Made by a program: the position numbers and the translations under genes
NCBI GenBank assembly: GCA_963727445.1
Contig: CAVSGI010000010.1
Coordinates: 1,216,001 to 1,280,000 of the forward strand
Source: an uncultured delta proteobacterium
GTDB taxonomy: Bacteria > Myxococcota_A > Polyangia > Polyangiales > B10-G4
Direction of reading: 5' to 3'
DNA: 64,000 nucleotides
Notes under the pieces: generated by a model
Databases searched by the model: none
Seen by the model: only the letters and a program-made list of their open reading frames with translations
Told to the model about the DNA's origin: nothing
In this document: positions 328 to 12,312 of the stretch, piece after piece
Layout: every line of letters starts with the position of its first letter
Position numbering within the stretch: position 1 is the stretch's first letter

Positions 328-1548
328 GTGTACCGAAGCGCGCTACCGGGCTTTTATCGCCTGCCGTTGAACGAGAGGGTCGCTCGCATCGCCGAGCTGA
401 CCGGCCTCGAGGATGCGGAGGCCCAGACCTTCGATCCCGAGGGCGGTCTCCGGGTGCCGGAGGCCGATCGGATGATCGAGAACGCGTTGGGGGTCTTCGG
501 GCTGCCCCTCGGGATCTGCGCCAACCTCCGGGTCGACGGCCGGGACCGGCTGGTGGCGATGGCCACCGAGGAGCCCTCGGTCGTCGCTGCCGCGAGCCAC
601 GCCGCCAAGCTCCTCCGCGAAGGCGAGGGTGTCGTCACAGAGGTGGGGCCGTCGCACATGATCGGCCAGATCCAGGTGCTAGAGGTCGACCGCGGTCAGC
701 CCATCGGGGACGCGATCGAGGCGGAGAAGGCCTCGCTCCTCGCCCTCGCGAACTCGGCGCATCCGAGCCTCGTCGCCGCGGGCGGAGGCGCCCGGGACCT
801 CACGACGCGCTCGATCCCCCGGATCGCCGAGCACGATCCGATCGGTGACATGTGGGTCGTCGAGATCCTCGTCGACGTTCAGGACGCGATGGGCGCCAAC
901 GCCATCAACTCGATGTGCGAGCGGCTGGCGCCGCGGATCGAGGCGATTACCGGCGGGCGGGTGAACCTCCGGATCCTGTCGAACCTCTCCGACCTCCGCA
1001 CGGTAAGAGCCGTCGGTGAGGTGCCGATCGACAAGCTCGATCCGTCGGACCGGGACAGCGCACGCCTTCTCGCGAGCCGCATCGTCGAGGCTTCGGTCTT
1101 CGCCGAGCGGGACCCCTACCGCGCCGCCACGCACAACAAGGGCATCATGAATGGCGTCGACGCCGTGCTCCTCGCCTTCGGTCAGGACACGCGCGCCGTC
1201 GAAGCCGGCGCGCACGCCTACGCAGCGCGCGACGGCCGCTACACGGCGCTGTCGCGCTTCCGCCTCCGCAGCGATGCGCTCCTCTGTGAGCTCGAGCTGC
1301 CCATGGCCGTCGGGACGGTCGGAGGCGTGGCGCACGCGCACCCCACCGTGGCCGTGGCGCGACAGATGGCGAAGATCACCCGCGCCAGCGAGCTCGCGAG
1401 CATCGCCACAGCGGTGGGGCTCGCCCAGAACCTCGCGGCGCTCCGCGCGCTCGCGGGCGAGGGGATCCAGTCGGGGCACATGCGGCTCCACGCGAGAAAA
1501 TCCACGCGGCCACCCGCCGCGACCGAGGAGAAGCGGAGGGCGTCATGA
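328..1548 (+). CDS. mvaA: hydroxymethylglutaryl-CoA reductase, class II
   Basis: Motifs IENALG, ATEEPSVVAA, DAMGAN, ATHNKGIMNG, EGIQSGHM. Confidence 0.92.
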   Translation: MYRSALPGFYRLPLNERVARIAELTGLEDAEAQTFDPEGGLRVPEADRMIENALGVFGLPLGICANLRVDGRDRLVAMATEEPSVVAAASHAAKLLREGEGVVTEVGPSHMIGQIQVLEVDRGQPIGDAIEAEKASLLALANSAHPSLVAAGGGARDLTTRSIPRIAEHDPIGDMWVVEILVDVQDAMGANAINSMCERLAPRIEAITGGRVNLRILSNLSDLRTVRAVGEVPIDKLDPSDRDSARLLASRIVEASVFAERDPYRAATHNKGIMNGVDAVLLAFGQDTRAVEAGAHAYAARDGRYTALSRFRLRSDALLCELELPMAVGTVGGVAHAHPTVAVARQMAKITRASELASIATAVGLAQNLAALRALAGEGIQSGHMRLHARKSTRPPAATEEKRRAS

Positions 1549-4500
1549 GCAGCTTCATCACAGGTGACGGTTTCGACAGCACTGCCGGCGGGGCGACGGG
1601 CGACCCGGACGACGCCTTCGTCGCGGAGATGATCCCGCGCGTCTCCCGGACCTTCGCGCTCTCCATCTCGCTCTTGCCCCGAGCGCTCCGCGAGCCGGTG
1701 GGCATCGGCTATCTGTTGTGCCGCATCGTCGACTCGATCGAGGACGAGGCGTCCCTCGCGCGCGCGTCGCGCGAGGCGCTCTTCGACGCCTTCGACGCGG
1801 CGCTCACCTCGGATCGCCACGACACCGATGCGCTCGAGACGCTCGCGCGCCGCGAAGCCCTCGGCGGAACCGACGCAGAGCACCGCCTCACCACCCACGC
1901 AGGCGCCGTCTTTCGCGCGTTCCGACGCCTGCCGCGCGTCCAGCGAGACGCGATTCGCCCCCACGTCCTCGAGATGTCCGCCGGCATGCGGGAGTTCGCC
2001 GCGCGCACCGACGAGCGCGGCGCCTTCGCGATCGACGACGTCGCCGACCTCGAGCGCTATTGCTACTACGTCGCCGGCACCGTCGGCCTGCTCCTCACCG
2101 AGCTCTTCGAGCTGGAGGTGCCGGAGCTGGACGAGGACGCGCGACGCGTCATCCACGAGACCGCGGTCGCCTTCGGCCTCGGCCTTCAGCTGGTGAACAT
2201 CGCCAAGGACGTCGCCGACGACGCCGCGCGCGGCGTCTGCTTCCTACCCGTCGATCGGGCGCGTGCCCTCGGCCTCGATCTCTCGCGCATCCTCGACTCG
2301 GACCAGCGCGACCAGGGCCTCGCGCTCCTGAACGAGGTCTGCGACCTCGCGCAGAAGCATCTCGATGCGGCGCGGCGCTACACGCTCGCCTGGCCCGACG
2401 GCGCTGCCGGAGGCGAAGGTGAAGCGGTCCGCCTCTTCTGCGCCGTGCCCCTCGCCCTCGCCGTCGCCACCCTGCGCGAGAATCCGCCGCGGCGACGATT
2501 CCCTCAGGAAGGGCCACAACCCGAAGGTCTCCCGCGAGACCGTCTCGAAGATCGTCGAGCGCGCCCTTCAGGGCGCGGGCGACGACGACGCCCTCGGGGC
2601 GCTGCTCTCCGCCGAGCCCGACGCCCTCGATCACACCGCGCCCACCAGCGCCGAAAAGCGCGCCCAGGCGCTCCTCGCCGCCACCGATCGCGCGAGTCGG
2701 TTCCTGCGGAGCATCCAGGCGCCCGAAGGCTTCTGGAAGGGCGAGCTCGAGACCAACGTGACCATGGACGCGGAGGATCTGCTCCTGCGTCAGTTCCTCG
2801 GCATCCGCACCGAAGAGGACACCCAGGCGGCCGCGCGCTGGATCCGCTCGCAGCAGCGCGAGGACGGAACCTGGTCGAACGCCCGCGGCGGGCCCGCGAA
2901 TCTGTCGACGACCATCGAGGCCTACGTTGCGCTCAAGCTCGCCGGCGACTCCACGGAGCTGCGCCACATGAAGATCGCCGCGGCGTGGATCCGCGACCAG
3001 GGCGGCGTGCGCGAGTCGCGCGTCTTCACCCGCATCTGGCTGGCGCTCTTCGGGCTCTGGCCCTGGGAGACGCTCCCCAAGCTCCCGCCGGAGATGATGC
3101 TCCTGCCGCACTGGGTGCCCCTCAACGTCTACGACTTCGCCTGCTGGGCCCGCCAGACGGTGGTCGCGATGACGGTGGTGATGAGCTATCGCCCGGTTCG
3201 GCACATCGGCTTCGACATCGACGAGCTCTCGAACGGTCCGATCGATCACAGCCGCGATCACCACACCGTGCCGGAGCGCGTCTTCGCGCGCGTCGACAAG
3301 GCGCTCACCGTGTACGAGCGCTTCCCGATCCGCCCGCTGCGCGAGCGCGCCCTCGCCGAAGCCGAGCGCTGGATCATCCAGCGTCAGGAGGCCGACGGCT
3401 CTTGGGGCGGCATCCAGCCGCCCTGGGTCTACTCGATCATGGCGCTGACCCTGCGCGGCTACCCGCCCTCTCATCCGGTCATAAAGGCGGGCCTCGAAGG
3501 GCTCGATCGCTTCACCATCCGCGAGGATGGCGTGCGTCGCCTCGAGGCGTGTCAGTCGCCGGTGTGGGACACGGCCTACGCCGTTCAGGCCCTCGCCGAC
3601 GCCGGCGCTTCGCCCTCGGACGACGCGATGGTGCGCGGCGCCGGGTGGCTCCTCGACCAGGAGGTTCGCCAGCGCGGCGACTGGTCGATTCGCCGCCCCG
3701 ACCTGCCCCCGGGCGGTTGGGCCTTCGAGTTCGCCAACGTGAACTACCCGGACGTCGACGACACCGCCGAGGTGATCATCGCCCTGCGACGCGCGGCCTA
3801 TCCGGACCCGCAGCGCATGGAGTCGGCCATCGCCCGCGGCGTGCGCTGGCTCCTCGGCATGCAGAGCAAGGACGGCGGCTGGGGCGCCTTCGACGCCGAC
3901 AACACCCAGCGTCTCGTGCGCGACATCCCCTTCTGCGATTTCGGCGAGGTCATCGATCCACCGAGCGCCGACGTCACCGCCCACGCGGTCGAGACGCTCT
4001 GCAAGGAAGGGCTCACGAACCATCCCGCGACCCAGGCCGGCATTCGCTGGCTCCTCGACCATCAGGAAAACGACGGCTCGTGGTTCGGACGTTGGGGCGT
4101 GAACTACGTCTACGGCACGGGGGGCGTCCTGATGGCCCTCGCCGAGACCGACCTCGACACGAAGTCCGACGCGATCCGTCGCGCCGTCCGCTGGCTCTAC
4201 GACAAGCAAAACGCCGACGGCGGTTGGGGCGAAGACGTCCGCTCCTACGAGGATCGCAGCTGGGCGGGGCGCGGCCCGAGCACGCCGTCCCAGACGGCCT
4301 GGGCGCTGCTCGGGCTGATCGCGGTCGGCGAGACGGGAGATGCCGTTCGTCGCGGCATCGACTACCTCGTCTCGCAGCAGCGCGAGGACGGAGGCTGGGA
4401 GGAGACCGAGTTCACCGGCACCGGCTTCCCCTGCGACTTCTACATCAACTACCACCTCTACCGTCAGGTCTTCCCGACCATGGCCCTCGGCCGCTACGCG

Positions 4501-4584
4501 CGCGCCCTCGGCCTGATCGCGAACGCGCCGAAGCCAGGTCGAGGTCTGGTGCAGCTTCGCCTCGTCGAGCAGGGGCAGAGCTGA
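1545..4584 (+). CDS. shc: squalene synthase (N-terminal) fused to squalene-hopene cyclase (C-terminal); one apparent extra base at ~2481
   Basis: Squalene synthase motifs VSRTFALSI, CRIVDSIEDE, YCYYVAGTVG, LQLVNIAKDVADD; cyclase motifs FWKGELETNVT, QSPVWDTA, YPDVDDTAEV and several QxxDGxW repeats; the frames join at ATLRE|IRRGDD. Confidence 0.85.
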
Positions 4585-4593
4585 AGACGCGCG

Positions 4594-5172
4594 ATGCTCG
4601 CTTCCCACCAGACGGCGGCTGACAGAGCGCTGATCCTCGCACCCCTCGCGGTCGAGGCCATGGCCCTGGGCCGCGGCCTTCGCCATCGCGTGATCAAGAC
4701 GGGGATGGGTCCAGCGAGGTCGCGCCGCGCCGCGCGCCGTCTCGAGGACGAGCAGGCGGATCGCGTCTTCGTGGTCGGCGTCTGTGGTGCGCTCGACCCG
4801 GCGCTGTCGCCGGGCGACGTCTTCGTAGCCGACGAAGTGCGGGGGCCGGACAAGACGGTCACCTGCGACGCCGACCAGGTAGCCGAAGCCCTCGAAGCCG
4901 CGGGCCTCGGGGTCGTCCGCGGCGTGCTCGTGTCCACCGACCACGTGGTCACCGGCGCCGAGCGCGCCGCCCTCCATGACGAAGGCGCTCACGCCGTCGA
5001 CATGGAGTCCTTCTTTCTGTCGTCCCTCGCCCGCGGCCGGCGCTTCGCCGTCGTCCGCGTCGTGGTCGACACCCCTTCGCGCGAGCTCGGTCGCGCGCTT
5101 CACACCGCAGTCGCGGGCGCGCGGGCGCTCCGCACCCTCGGGCGCATCGGTAGCGTCCTCGATCAGCTCTGA
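4594..5172 (+). CDS. hpnG: hopanoid-associated nucleoside phosphorylase
   Basis: PNP/UDP-phosphorylase motifs TGMGP, GVCGALDPALSPGDV, AVDMES, VRVVVD; lies between shc and hpnH. Confidence 0.8.
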   Translation: MLASHQTAADRALILAPLAVEAMALGRGLRHRVIKTGMGPARSRRAARRLEDEQADRVFVVGVCGALDPALSPGDVFVADEVRGPDKTVTCDADQVAEALEAAGLGVVRGVLVSTDHVVTGAERAALHDEGAHAVDMESFFLSSLARGRRFAVVRVVVDTPSRELGRALHTAVAGARALRTLGRIGSVLDQL

Positions 5173-5189: not shown

Positions 5190-6200
5190 ATGGGTATCCC
5201 GGTCCAGCAACAGCTCATCCTCGGCTCGTACCTTCTCAAGAAGAAGCTCAAGCGGCAGAAGAAGTTCCCGCTCCTGGTGGAGATCGAGCCGCTCTTCGCG
5301 TGCAACCTCGCCTGCTCCGGCTGCGGGAAGATCCAGTACCCGAAGGAGATCCTGAAGAAGCGCCTCAGCGTCCAGCAGGTGCTCGACGCCATGGATGAAT
5401 GCGGCGCACCGATGTGCTCCATCGCCGGCGGCGAGCCGCTCATCCACCCCGAGATGGACGTGATGGTCCGCGAGCTCCTCGCGCGCGGGAAGATCGTCTT
5501 CCTCTGCACCAACGCCCTGCTGCTCGAGAAGAAGATGCACCTCTTCGAGCCGCACCCGCGCTTCAGCTGGACGATCCACCTCGACGGCCTGCGCGATCGC
5601 CACGACGAGACGGTCTGCCGCGAGGGCACCTTCGACAAGGCGGTCTCGGCCCTGCGCGAGGCGAAGCGCCGCGGCTTCCAGGTCACCACCAACTCGACCT
5701 TCTTCAAGAGCGACACCCCCGAGGACGTCCGCAAGGTGCTCGACTTCCTGAACGACGACCTGGGCGTCGACGGGATGATGATCTCCCCCGGCTTCGCCTA
5801 CGAAAAGGCGCCGAAGCCCGAGGAGTTCCTCTCGGTCCCGGAGGCGCGCGAGCTCTTCCGCGCGGCCTTCGCCGACGGCCACCGCGAGAAGTGGCGCCTC
5901 AACCAGAGCCCCCTCTTCCTCGACTTCCTCGAGGGCCGGGCCAACCTCGAGTGCACCCCCTGGGCGATCCCCAGCTACTCCATCTTCGGCTGGCAGAAGC
6001 CCTGCTATCTCATGGGCGATGGCTACGTGGAGACCTATCAGGAGCTCCTCGAGACCACCGAATGGGAGCGCTACGGCCGCGGCCGCGACCCGCGCTGCGC
6101 CAACTGCATGGCCCACTGCGGTCACGAACCGACGGCGGTGATGGCGACCATGGGCTCGCTCCGCGAGGCGGCGCGCGCCGCCATGAGCTCGAACGCATGA
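5190..6200 (+). CDS. hpnH: adenosylhopane-forming radical SAM enzyme
   Basis: EPLFACNLACSGCGKIQYP (CxxxCxxC), SIAGGEPLIH, WQKPCYL, CANCMAHCG; AGGAG SD. Confidence 0.92.
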   Translation: MGIPVQQQLILGSYLLKKKLKRQKKFPLLVEIEPLFACNLACSGCGKIQYPKEILKKRLSVQQVLDAMDECGAPMCSIAGGEPLIHPEMDVMVRELLARGKIVFLCTNALLLEKKMHLFEPHPRFSWTIHLDGLRDRHDETVCREGTFDKAVSALREAKRRGFQVTTNSTFFKSDTPEDVRKVLDFLNDDLGVDGMMISPGFAYEKAPKPEEFLSVPEARELFRAAFADGHREKWRLNQSPLFLDFLEGRANLECTPWAIPSYSIFGWQKPCYLMGDGYVETYQELLETTEWERYGRGRDPRCANCMAHCGHEPTAVMATMGSLREAARAAMSSNA

Positions 6201-6934
6201 ACGACTCCTTCGACGAACCGGAGGTCGACGCGGGGGGAAATCCTCACCCCCGTGGCGGCCTGACCCGCGTTGTCCTACGCTACCCTCAGATGGGCGAGCG
6301 GGCGGAAGACCAGGGATCGAAGGGGCCTCGCGGCGCCGAGGCTCGCCGCAGCCGGATCGTCGACGTCGCCATCAAGCTCGCGCGTGGCCGCGGCTTCGAA
6401 GCCGTGGGACTTCGGGAGGTGGCCGACGAAGCCGGCGTCGCGCTCGGGACCCTCTACAAGGTCTTCAGCAGCAAAGAGGAGATGATCTCCGCTGCCGTCG
6501 ACCAGCAGACGCGCCTTCTGCGCAAGCGCTTCGAGCGTTCGCCGGCACGCGGCGAGACCCGCCTCGAGCGCCTCGAGGATCTCTTCACCCGCCTGACGCG
6601 TGCGCTGTGCCGTCGCCCGGCGTACGCGCGCGGGATCATCGCCAGCATCACCGCGAACCATCCGGAGATCTTCGCCAAGGTGCTCGAGCACGAAGACGAG
6701 ATGAACCGGATCCTCATCGCGGCGCTCCGCGGGGGTGACCCGCGCAAGCACGAACCGGCTTCCTTCACCGAGGGCGAGCGGCTTGTGACGTTCCTGCTCC
6801 GGCAGGTGTGGTTCGCAGGCCTGGTGGGCTGGGCCGGAGGCCTCTTCAGCCAGCCGGAGATCGTGCGGCAGGTGATGAGCGCGGCCGAGCTGATCCTCGC
6901 CGGCGCCGACAGCGCCGGTCTCGATCTGACCTGA
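6197..6934 (+). CDS. TetR-family regulator, KstR-like
   Basis: HTH RRSRIVDVAIKLARGRGFEAVGLREVADEAGVALGTLYKVFSSKE; ATG overlaps the hpnH stop (ATGA); the true start could be later (~6290). Confidence 0.8.
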   Translation: MNDSFDEPEVDAGGNPHPRGGLTRVVLRYPQMGERAEDQGSKGPRGAEARRSRIVDVAIKLARGRGFEAVGLREVADEAGVALGTLYKVFSSKEEMISAAVDQQTRLLRKRFERSPARGETRLERLEDLFTRLTRALCRRPAYARGIIASITANHPEIFAKVLEHEDEMNRILIAALRGGDPRKHEPASFTEGERLVTFLLRQVWFAGLVGWAGGLFSQPEIVRQVMSAAELILAGADSAGLDLT

Positions 6935-7055: not shown

Positions 7056-8764
7056 GTGCACACGACGATTCGACTGATCCTTCTCGCGCTCGTCACCGCC
7101 ACCATCGCGTGCGGTGACGATGCTTCGCCACCAGTGGACGCGGCGACCGACGCCGATGCCGGGGTCGCGGACGCTGCGCCCGACGCCGCGCCCCCGATGG
7201 ACTGGCCTTCGATGGACGTGCCCGCCTCCACCGTCCCCGAGGCAGGCGTGCGCCGCGACCTCTTCCTGGTGCCGGGCGTCACGCCCCCGCCGAACCCGAC
7301 CACCATGGCCGCGACGCCCGATGAGCTCGACTTCACCCAGGTCGTCCGCTACCGCCAGGACGCGACCGACCCCGTGCCCGCGCGCGCCATCGTCGTCGCC
7401 ATGCCGGGCTTCCTCGGCGGCGGTCCGAGCTTCGAGACGCTCGCGCACGCGCTGGTGAAGCGCGGCGCGGCGAGCGGAGAGGCGCTCGAGGTGTGGGCCA
7501 TCGACCGCCGCTCGAACCTGCTCGAGGATCTGCGCGGGATGAACACCGCCGAGGCCGCGGGCAATCCGGAGATCGCCCAGGGCTACTACTTCGGTGGGGA
7601 GACCATCGATGGCGAGGCCTTCGGTCGGTTCCGCGCGGCGAGCGAGCTCTCCTTCGAGAGCGAGTGGGGGCTCGCCACACACGTCGAAGATCTCCGCCGC
7701 GTGATCGCGCTGGTCCCGGAGGCCGCGCGCCAGGGACACGTCTTCCTGATGGGCCACTCCCTCGGCGGCGCGTTCACCGAGGCGTATGCGTCTTGGCGCT
7801 TCGAGGATGGGACCCGCGGCGTCGAGGAGCTGGCGGGGCTGATCCTCATCGACGGCGCGCTCGGCGACACCGCCAGCACCGAAGACGCGTACCACGCCGG
7901 AACGATGAGCGCCTTCGGTCCGGTGCCGGGCGTCGATGGCATCCGCGAGTCGGCTCCCTTCACTGCGCTCCCCCTCCTCGGGCTCGCGATCTACGCCCGC
8001 GCCGAGATCATGAGCATGCGAACGCTCGTCGATCCGACCGGCATCGTCGCCGACGGCGGGCGCAACCAGGTCCTGTCCATCCTTCTCTCTCGACCCCCAC
8101 GCAGATCCCGGAGCTCACCAACCAGGCCGCGCTCGGATGGGGCTTCGATTCCGAGTCGAACGCCTTCTCCTTCGCGGCGGTCTCGTGCGGCCGTTCGACC
8201 GGCGGACCCACCGACACCTACGACAACCCCTTCGGCGAAGGCACGCTCCTTCACCCGACCGATCCCGACGCGACCTACGACTGGGTGGACGCGCCCGACG
8301 TCGACCCGCCCGAGCCCACGCCCATCGCCGCCCTCGCCCAGTCGTGGTCCCATGGCGCGACCAACTTCGCGGAGTGGTACTTCCCGAGTCGCCTGCCCGT
8401 CGATCTCTCGGCGGTCGGGGGAACGGACGTGCCCGAAGACGGCTATCAGGCTAGCGAGGGGCTGCGCGCCTTCGACCGCGAGCTGGTGGATGCGCCGGTC
8501 CTGGCCATCGCGGCCGCGCTCCTCGGCCCGAGCGGTTTCGACACGCTCCCCTCGCGCCTCGCCCCCTCGGTCGGCACGGGACGACCGGCGGAGGGAGCGA
8601 CCCGAGACGACGAGCGCGGGCTGCGCGTGATCGATCTCTCGTCGCTGTCGCATCTCGATCCGCTGACCGGCGTCGACAGCGACGCAAACCCCACGGCGCG
8701 GGAGGTGGAGCGCTTCGTGGGGGAGCACGTGGCGGATGGGACGGTCGAAGTACCCCTGATGTGA
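7056..8764 (+). CDS. alpha/beta-hydrolase-fold lipoprotein (frameshift ~8085-8095)
   Basis: Lipobox TIAC, MPGFLGG, WAIDRRSNLLED, nucleophile elbow GHSLGG, LILIDG; C-terminal LSHLD in the second frame. Confidence 0.75.
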
Positions 8765-9853: not shown

Positions 9854-11013
9854 GCAACGCGAAGAAAATCTCGGCCGTCTGCCTGGGCGCTTGCCTCGCG
9901 CTCGCGGCGTGTGGAGACAGCGACCCCTGTGAAGGCCTCGAGTCCGGCCACGCCTGCACCTGGCTCGGCACCAAGGGCATGGAGGGGTTCAACGGCGACA
10001 ACCACCGCCTCGACACCCAGGTCAACCAGGTCCAGGACATGATCTTCCTGCCGGACGGGACCGCCTGGTTCACGGACTTCAACAACTTCCTCGTCCGCCG
10101 CGTCCACCTCGACGACGGGATGGTGGAGAGCATGATCGGCTGGACCGATCCCATCTTCCCCGGCGATGGGCCCATCGACGGGATCACACCCGCCGGCGCG
10201 CCCGGGGACGAGTGGCAGCTCAACCACCCGACGAACCTGCTGATCTCGCCCGAGGGGCGCATCGTCCTGGTGGCCTGGCACAACCACAAGATCCTCGACG
10301 TCGATCCCCAGGACGGATTCGTCCACGTCATCTGCGGAGGAGGCGCGGGCTACGCGGGTGATGGCGGGCCGGCCGAGGGCGCGAAGTTCAAGCAGCTCAA
10401 CGACGCGACCTACGACGAGGCGGGCAACCTCTACATCGTCGACCAGCAGAACGAGCGCATCCGGGTCATCGACACCTCGGACATGATCAACACCTTCGCC
10501 GGCGACGGGACGATCGGCGACAGCGGGGACGGCGGCCCGGCCGTCGACGCCGAGTTCCACTGGGCGGTGGGCTCGAACCCCAACCCGAGCGGCGGCATCG
10601 TCTATCACGAGGGCAAGCTCTACGTCTCCGACACCGAGAACGACCGGGTCCGCGTCATCGACATCGCCGCGGGGACGGTGGACGCCCTCGCCGGAACGGG
10701 CGAGGAAGGCTATTCGGGCGACGGGGGCCCAGCGGTGGACGCGCAGCTCAACGCGCCGCGCGACCTCGAGATCGGCCCCGACGGCGACCTCTACATCGTC
10801 GAGACCGACAACAGCGTGATTCGCGCGGTAAACCTCGACACGGGCATCATTCGCACCGCCGTCGGCACCGGCGAGCTGGGCCTGGACGAGGAAGAGGGGC
10901 TGCTCGCGACCGAGACCCACCTCCGCCGCCCCTTCGGCATCGTCTTCGACCCTGACGGCAACCTCTTCGTGATGGACTCCCTGAACAACCGCATCGTGAA
11001 GGTGGCGCGATGA
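9850..11013 (+). CDS. NHL-repeat lipoprotein
   Basis: Lipobox LAAC; repeated GDGGPA..AxLN.P..L...DG.LYI.D..N..IR; ATGA overlap with the upstream gene. Confidence 0.85.
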   Translation: MSNAKKISAVCLGACLALAACGDSDPCEGLESGHACTWLGTKGMEGFNGDNHRLDTQVNQVQDMIFLPDGTAWFTDFNNFLVRRVHLDDGMVESMIGWTDPIFPGDGPIDGITPAGAPGDEWQLNHPTNLLISPEGRIVLVAWHNHKILDVDPQDGFVHVICGGGAGYAGDGGPAEGAKFKQLNDATYDEAGNLYIVDQQNERIRVIDTSDMINTFAGDGTIGDSGDGGPAVDAEFHWAVGSNPNPSGGIVYHEGKLYVSDTENDRVRVIDIAAGTVDALAGTGEEGYSGDGGPAVDAQLNAPRDLEIGPDGDLYIVETDNSVIRAVNLDTGIIRTAVGTGELGLDEEEGLLATETHLRRPFGIVFDPDGNLFVMDSLNNRIVKVAR

Positions 11014-12312
11014 AGCAGCTCTCTGTCATTCTCATCCTCCTCGCGACCTCGGGCGCCGTCGCGCTCGCCGGCTGCGGCGGCGAGACCTGCGATCCCAGCG
11101 TCGCCGGGACAATCTGCACCATCGCCGGCAGCGGCAACAACGGCTACGACCGCGACGCCGACACCCGGGCGATCCCGGCCGCCGAGGTCCGCTTCTCGCT
11201 TCCCCAGGACACGCTCACCGCCTCGGACGGCACCCTGTACATCCTCGACTGGAACAACCACCGCCTGCGCAGCCTGAAGGATGACGGGATGATTCGCTGG
11301 GTCGCGGGTCGAGGCGAGCTCGGCGGCACCCTCGACGATCCGGCGAACGGCGACTTCAACCACCCGACCAACATGATCTTCGACGAGGACGAGACGCACA
11401 TCATCCTCGCCGCGTGGCACAACAGCATGGTGCGCACCGTCGACCTCGCGACCAGCATGGTGACGGATAGCTGCGGCGACGGCAACGCCGCGCCTACTTC
11501 GGCGACGAGGGCCCGGCGCTGTCGTCGGCGCTCGATCTGCCGGCCAGCGTCGCCTGGACCCCGGACGGCGACCTGATCGATCATGGATCAGGCGAACCAG
11601 GTGCTGCGCAGGGTCGACTCGGAAGGCATCGTGCACCTGGCCGCGGGCCGCTGCGTCGTCGACGCCGCGCCGCCCAACGGCCCCGGGACCTGCGACGTCT
11701 CGGAGCTCGACCCAGTGTCCCGCCGATCCCGCGGGCAACGTCTCGGGCAAGTGGGTTTGCGGCGACCCGATGGAGTTCTGCTCGCATCCCTGCACGCCCG
11801 GCTATTCGGGTGACGACATCCCGGCGACAGAGATGCGGATCGCGCAGCCCTTCGGCCAGTCCGCCACCCCGGCCGGGCGCATCGTCTACGACGACGCGGG
11901 CAACCTCTATTTCGCCGACACCGGCAACCACCTGATGCGGATGATCGACACCGACGGCATGGTTCACCGGGTCGCCGGGCAGCCGCCGGTCGACGGCGTG
12001 CCTCAGCGCGGAGCGGAGGGCGACGGTGGCCCGGCGCTCGACGCCTTCTTGAACCACCCGGTCGACCTCGCTCTTGGCGACGACGGCACGCTCTACTTCG
12101 CGGACGTGAACAACCACTGCATCCGGGCGATCGACAGCGCCGGCAACATCGACACCGTCGCCGGGGTCTGTGGCACCAAGGGCTACGAAGGCGATGGCGG
12201 GCCAGCCGACGAGGCGCTCCTCAACCTGCCCTTCGGCGTCGAGTTCACGAACGGTGACCTGATCGTCTCCGACACGGGCAACAGCGTCTTGCGCCGCTTC
12301 AGGATCCCCTGA
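11010..12312 (+). CDS. NHL-repeat lipoprotein (frameshifts ~11487, ~11580, ~11715)
   Basis: Lipobox LAGC; NHL repeats continue across ORF pieces 11010-11576, 11583-11813 and 11770-12312. Confidence 0.75.

Follow-up and report, generated by a model that had tools for sequence, protein, structure and literature searches.

Does a single gene of an uncultured delta proteobacterium specify both the synthesis and the cyclization of squalene? The question is raised by a 64,000-nucleotide stretch of contig CAVSGI010000010.1 (hereafter the window), in which a squalene synthase (SQS) domain and a squalene-hopene cyclase (SHC) domain lie on the plus strand between positions 1545 and 4584 in different reading frames. 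The original prediction had described the pair as an SQS::SHC fusion leading from farnesyl diphosphate (FPP) to hopene, to be restored by removing one base at about position 2481. We consider it probable that the locus encodes one bifunctional enzyme of about 1012 amino acids (aa) and that the extra base is an error of the window assembly. The fusion itself is borne out by an intact homologue, P0001, which is encoded unbroken with 1024 aa and both sets of motifs in the same-genus genome G001, in the same operon and among the same neighbours.

The interrupted reading frame and its two halves

The synthase part before the break (1545–2480; PF00494, E 2e-52) comprises 312 codons, and the cyclase frame from 2482 to 4581 adds 700, which gives the expected 1012 aa. 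As stated in the original prediction, no stop ends the synthase in its own frame; this open reading frame (ORF) extends from 1545 to its first stop at 4622. Past 2481 its G+C content at third codon positions (GC3) drops from 0.90 to 0.49; for the +1 frame the value there is 0.92. Taken alone this control is weak, because the +1 frame already reaches 0.82 before the break. All 15 full-length homologues tested aligned as two pieces that change frame at the break, the second piece resuming at 2482 in 11 of them and at 2494–2503 in the other four. Residue 322 of P0001 ends at 2480 and residue 323 begins at 2482, and the DNA alignment between the window and G001 has a one-base gap at the break. A 251-letter contig of a separate run (X1) spans 252 window bases (2322–2573) with two mismatches and one gap; it is 99% alike and one base shorter across the junction, the match report giving no position for the gap. 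No junction-spanning piece was present among the matches listed from runs X2, X3 and X5.

The background of such shifts in the genome of the window (G000) was estimated with 272 coding-like ORFs from 400 kb of G001 (7.1 Mb), 230 of which had hits; 149 pairs reached the threshold of at least 55% identity over at least 150 aa. In G000, 17 of these 149 pairs were frameshifted, with 21 events in 64,201 aa. This rate of 0.11 events per kb corresponds to a chance of about 28% for a shift in a 3-kb gene. Eight events were clean adjacent shifts; artefacts of repeats may account for part of the remainder. The extra base of the window lies within 2479–2483. Since the gene is intact in G001, the X1 contig is one base shorter and 17 of 149 control genes are frameshifted, an assembly error is the most likely cause of the break. 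Two more genes of the window (7056–8764 and 11010–12312) are apparently split across frames as overlapping ORFs, which would fit indel errors.

The segment from 2482 to 2680, in the cyclase frame, comprises the C-terminal helices of the synthase and a variable linker. Because the PKVSR motif (2521–2535) sits past the break, a synthase that stopped at 2480 would not be complete. With regard to a separate start of the cyclase, the original prediction was right in part: between 2482 and the conserved FWKGEL there is no ATG, GTG or TTG and there are two CTG codons only, but two start codons in the cyclase frame upstream of the break, ATG at 2365 and GTG at 2419, had been overlooked. As these codons precede the break, the public gene call P0283 (721 aa) contains the cyclase half only.

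The best sequence matches of the synthase half in the PDB are squalene synthases. Its motifs SRTF (1644), DSIED (1731), YCYYVAG (2058), NIAKDVADD (2196) and RLFC (2430) precede PKVSR, and SQS positions are invariant or nearly so in all 14 aligned fusions, namely the flap SRTF, D74/E77/D78, Y186, K235/D236/D240, F308-C309 and K337/R340. The first Asp motif of this PF00494 domain (DSIED) is of the DT/SxED type and not of the HpnC, HpnD or CrtB type; DTxxD is given as a squalene synthase signature (PMC7306690). Human SQS is described with a flap, Asp-rich regions, Tyr171, Phe288 and a proposed NADPH-binding VKIRK motif (PMC10378455), and the fusion has counterparts of Tyr171, Phe288, both Asp-rich regions and VKIRK (as PKVSR). 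The elements of the second half-reaction are present as flap SRxF (SRTF), FC (RLFC) and the VKIRK-like PKVSR, the K and R of which are invariant in 14 fusions. The single-step synthases (human FDFT1, 3vj8/1ezf; Aspergillus, 7wgh; Trypanosoma, 3wca; bacterial Sqs/FdfT) share the isoprenoid-synthase fold, with template modelling (TM) scores of about 0.8, the flap, both Asp-rich regions, the Tyr and Phe residues and the VKIRK-like motif. TIGR01559 scored higher than the models of HpnD, HpnC and CrtB, whose cut-offs were missed (TIGR03465, 76.5 of 278.6 bits; TIGR03464, 61.4 of 250.5; CrtB, at most 59 of 480–550). From its motifs and predicted fold, the synthase half is filed as Sqs-like, outside the TIGR01559 model.

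The cyclase half, with its domain at 2681–4584 up to the stop, contains SQHop_cyclase_N and _C and passed the TIGR01507 cut-off of 431 with 766 bits (751 bits for P0001). It matched the Alicyclobacillus acidocaldarius SHC (PDB 1sqc/1gsz; TIGR01507) with an E value of 1e-192 and 47% identity; DVDDTA (3751–3768) aligns to D374–A379, and F365 and PFCD are aligned as well. The Alicyclobacillus enzyme is stand-alone, whereas here the cyclase forms the C-terminal two-thirds of a fusion. The SHC motif D750-x-D752-D753 is invariant or nearly invariant across all 14 aligned fusions. The cyclase half would convert squalene to hopene, an activity that the neighbouring hpnG and hpnH genes fit.

Distribution and origin of the fusion

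A search with the synthase half among longer proteins scored 8000 candidates and gave 196 hits, 120 of which are listed. Sixteen of the 120 carry both domains, and 15 of these are full length (970–1224 aa); a further both-domain protein is P0363 (988 aa). The reservation that relatives might always encode two separate genes therefore falls, as intact fused homologues exist. P0284, at first sight a split form, clusters with the 988-aa fusion P0363. The largest of the fusions, P0009 (1224 aa; also recorded as P0274 in NCBI/ENA), is a triple fusion SQS::SHC::HpnG. The other listed synthase homologues are fused to SDR, polyprenyl synthase, HMG-CoA reductase (HMGR) or combinations of these, with up to 1601 aa, and one is stand-alone. 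Among them are myxobacterial-type HMGR-FPPS-SQS-SDR mega-fusions (P0004, P0011, P0024 and others) of up to 1601 aa, all four domains occurring in 13 of the 120 listed. In several relatives, a gene that includes SQS is followed directly by an oxidosqualene-cyclase-like gene. SHCs also occur with other fused domains, namely glycosyltransferase 28/EryCIII-like, DUF116, TetR and amino oxidase (50% representatives P0197, P0201, P0217, P0243, P0131, P0171 and P0184); P0197 is an SHC fusion of 1132 aa with an unassigned tail.

Because the named members are labelled Polyangiaceae or Deltaproteobacteria metagenome-assembled genomes, the fusion host appears to be myxobacterial. Most named copies are labelled 'squalene--hopene cyclase' only, and the JGI label of P0129 names both activities. 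Among 400 other genomes of the order, for each of which two candidates were scored, the fusion was found in one frame in G001, G117 and G211 and shredded by shifts in G374; these genomes overlap the protein hits and are not additional counts. In a 400-genome sample of the phylum it was found in G117 only. The SQS::SHC fusion is rare. Apart from it, no PF00494 match and no triterpene cyclase locus was found in G001 (86% complete) or G117 (98% complete), and no PF13243 locus in G001, G117, G211 or G374; further PF00494 genes are present in G211, G374 and G000.

In a synthase tree of 107 rows, from which every second non-cyclase protein hit was omitted, the 18 fused synthase domains formed one clade within a myxobacterial-type SQS family (Shimodaira–Hasegawa-like approximate likelihood-ratio test 93, not starred). 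The fused cyclase halves formed a clade with stand-alone SHCs of family f22 (support 99–100, starred), placed among SHCs of Actinomycetota, Chloroflexota and other Myxococcota. The stand-alone f22 genes either arose by fission or are sisters that never fused. One f22 genome, G022, carries a stand-alone SHC of the fused type and several triterpene-cyclase-like genes on four other contigs. An actinobacterial donor of the cyclase was not upheld, as other Myxococcota families share this SHC type and backbone support was 83–88.

When 1.84 billion representatives were searched with a profile, the best 150 matches included three further SQS::SHC proteins, P0126, P0129 and P0132, the last being named Planctomycetota. 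Their halves are 34–39% identical to those of P0001. The approximately unbiased test on the cyclase halves rejected a common origin for all fusions (p 2e-102, with one long branch, P0132). In 80 metagenome loci around P0126, the two domains were fused in four and encoded by adjacent separate genes in 57, while 18 contained the synthase only and one the cyclase only. The two domains were therefore joined on at least two and probably on three occasions, at least once from neighbouring operon genes.

Linker, membrane and rival explanations

The linker comprises 21–34 aa with a mean identity of 18%, compared with 55% and 69% for the two domains, and the junction of P0009 is about 30 aa longer. A structural model of P0001 built from 122 sequences had a predicted local distance difference test (pLDDT) value of 92.7 and a predicted TM score (pTM) of 0.72; it replaces a first, patchy fold on 14 sequences (pLDDT 72.5, pTM 0.52). 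The model has a TM score of 0.96 to 1sqc and 0.82 to human SQS and shows the two-barrel beta-gamma fold; no listed solved chain covers both halves. Inside the chain, the model is least confident at the linker, with a hinge at 372–375 below a pLDDT of 50, from which a long helix (376–404) leads into the cyclase. No hydrophobic anchor helix was found at the junction (maximum KD19 0.35). Complex prediction with the two domains as separate chains gave a score of 0.00, which is not evidence either way.

Squalene-hopene cyclase, a monotopic membrane enzyme, draws squalene out of the bilayer, and eukaryotic SQS has a C-terminal membrane anchor. In the fusion there is no such C-terminal membrane helix and the cyclase takes its position. 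Because the cyclase replaces the anchor and the junction has no hydrophobic helix, tethering and proximity seem to be the likely consequences of the fusion. The N-terminal single-step synthase would couple two FPP to presqualene diphosphate and reduce it with NAD(P)H to squalene, while the monotopic cyclase would hold the whole chain on the inner membrane. Squalene would be released into the bilayer beside the cyclase, the DxDD motif of which would protonate it to give hopene, a sterol-like lipid, or diplopterol, and HpnH and HpnG may then extend the product to C35 hopanoids. The gain from fusion would be 1:1 co-expression and proximity and not a sealed tunnel. Such a tunnel is unlikely, since the linker is variable, the modelled hinge is of low confidence and the synthase family fuses with many partners. 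Membrane co-localization appears to account for the fusion more simply than channelling.

The bifunctional part of the original prediction is upheld at the level of sequence by the intact homologues, by both motif sets and by two genomes with no other SQS-family gene; its suggestion of substrate channelling is not, in view of the variable linker and the low-confidence hinge. In true channelling, the synthase exit would be docked on the cyclase entrance and squalene would bypass the bulk membrane pool. Such an arrangement would accord with the retention of the fusion in two or more families and its repeated origin, with the helix that leads from the hinge into the cyclase and with a pTM somewhat above the share of the cyclase in the chain (about 0.6); proximity channelling has also been discussed for fungal chimeric synthases (PMC9177416). 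We nevertheless regard it as unlikely: besides the linker, the hinge and the longer P0009 junction, the fusion of the same synthase family to the unrelated SDR, FPPS and HMGR points to a general fusing tendency, and in the second lineage most loci keep the two genes adjacent but separate. A broader picture, in which SQS::SHC is a single-chain FPP-to-pentacyclic-triterpene synthase that channels squalene and evolved independently two to three times, and in which it represents, in myxobacteria-like hosts, one form of an isoprenoid assembly line built from modules (HMGR-FPPS-SQS-X, up to 1601 aa) whose post-SQS partner steers squalene to hopanoids or sterols, seems doubtful to us.

Several observations weigh against a fusion that makes hopene from FPP. 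The synthase half missed the TIGR01559 cut-off of 286.75 (103.9 bits for the window part, 107–139 bits for the intact P0001, P0363 and P0009) and is only 20–26% identical to solved SQS structures, and for these reasons its product is only inferred. Family f22 has stand-alone close relatives of the fused cyclase, so that fusion is not required for function. G000 contains a second, divergent SQS-like gene (C21:641.8–642.8 kb, L023:7775–8765) of about 40% identity, likewise broken by a frameshift, and on C15 (L171:5798–10523) a CrtB-like gene that adjoins an HpnE-like one (157 bits, below cut-off). No terpenoid neighbours were recognized among those scanned around the C21 gene. The C15 locus also contains a crtI-family gene and is probably a carotenoid cluster. 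If one half were inactive or made another product, the missed cut-off would be explained, as would the F at the position of Y420 of the Alicyclobacillus SHC and the GFPCDFY at 4423–4443, where Cys stands for the usual Gly of GFPGDFY, either as a true substitution or as a further sequencing error. The catalytic residues, on the other hand, are invariant in both halves, and neither G001 nor G117 has an SQS-family gene other than the fusion, which stands beside hpnG and hpnH; this explanation is therefore quite unlikely.

It is very unlikely that the window copy is a true frameshifted pseudogene among fused relatives, possibly leaving a cyclase translated from 2365 or 2419. The extra base is present in the assembly, the two in-frame start codons exist, the 721-aa product P0283 is recorded and the C21 gene offers a second SQS-like protein. 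Against this, 11% of genes are frameshifted as background, the X1 contig is one base shorter over the junction, and neither half has a further stop or shift, all motifs being intact. A programmed +1 frameshift, or two genes translated separately, is hardly conceivable to us. In another lineage, sqs and shc are often neighbouring but separate genes, but the 15 tested relatives all read through in one frame, so that a shift is not conserved; moreover, the synthase frame has no stop for 700 codons, and PKVSR and the last synthase helices lie past the break. Nor do we recognize a +1 slippery or stop-codon pause site there. A single bifunctional enzyme interrupted by an assembly error thus remains the reading that we prefer.

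Genomic context and significance

On the plus strand of the window, the gene order HMGR, SQS::SHC, hpnG, hpnH and TetR constitutes a hopanoid operon. The class II HMGR of the mevalonate pathway (328–1548; PF00368, E 7e-97; TIGR00532, 370 bits against a cut-off of 260) overlaps with its stop the ATG of the fusion gene at 1545. In G001, the HMGR (L021:3468–5801) has 777 aa and is fused to a polyprenyl synthase; the window HMGR stands alone, and a prenyl synthase is absent from the operon locus of the window, unlike its G001 counterpart. Downstream of the fusion lie genes for an HpnG-like hopanoid-associated phosphorylase/nucleosidase (4594–5172; PF01048; best NCBIfam match TIGR03468 with 100.6 bits, below the cut-off of 187), the radical-SAM adenosyl-hopene transferase HpnH (5190–6200; TIGR03470, 506 bits against 225) and a KstR-like TetR-family regulator (6197–6934; PF00440 and PF17925; NF033703 with 95.6 bits, below the cut-off of 280), which occupies the same position in G001. 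Upstream of the operon, at 217–244, two tandem imperfect palindromes of the form RAAC-N3-GTTY are located 17 nt apart. They are conserved in G001 and are the sole tandem pair with 14–20 nt spacing in the 9.47-Mb genome G000. Judged by their sequence, these palindromes are a candidate operator, to which the KstR-like regulator of the operon may bind. The KstR operator consensus is TnnAACnnGTTnnA (PMC1995591); the local palindromes at 217–244, with a three-base spacer, do not match it exactly.

In G000, three GHMP kinases adjoin another HMGR. No Dxr, oxidosqualene cyclase, HpnN or above-cut-off HpnE was found in this genome, which at 85.6% completeness does not establish their absence. The kinases beside HMGR and the failure to find Dxr fit a mevalonate supply, and the combination with SQS agrees with the pairing of the mevalonate pathway and SQS reported for myxobacteria (PMC8237579).

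Other systems resemble the fusion in part. Fungal PvCPS joins an alpha-fold prenyl-coupling domain to a beta-gamma class II cyclase and thus has a similar layout, but it is fungal and performs C20 diphosphate chemistry on a soluble substrate. The fungal chimeric class I triterpene synthases TvTS and MpMS make and cyclize an acyclic C30 precursor in one chain; their precursor is head-to-tail hexaprenyl diphosphate and their cyclase is of class I (PMC9177416), whereas the domains found here, SQS_PSY and a class II DxDD-type SHC, indicate head-to-head squalene. Hopanoid operons with HpnCDE, or with stand-alone Sqs and Shc, have the same shc-hpnG-hpnH order and the expected end product but keep the squalene-forming and cyclizing genes separate, and the fused HpnC-HpnD of Acidobacteria is the only fusion named for such operons in the accessible parts of these papers (PMC5462960, PMC7306690). 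No SQS-SHC fusion appears in the accessible parts of PMC7306690 (with its supplement), PMC8237579, PMC12324236/PMC12414744, PMC9907078, PMC5462960, 10.1101/2025.07.29.667474, PMC10378455, PMC7839719, PMC1995591, PMC10992375, PMC9177416 and PMC10563020, and none is described in the literature searched, although subscription journals, bioRxiv supplements and the other supplements could mention one. SQS::SHC is thus apparently an undescribed, recurrent fusion, hidden in databases by cyclase-only labels; the two enzymes that it joins are well known, and the chemistry is as expected.

If our reading is true, a single natural gene would suffice to lead from FPP to a pentacyclic triterpene. The fusion would also offer an easy way to test whether a lipid intermediate is affected by tethering or channelling, and it could serve terpene engineering as a compact part. 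Furthermore, it would mark uncultured myxobacteria-like lineages as likely hopanoid producers via mevalonate and Sqs, which bears on the reading of biomarkers.

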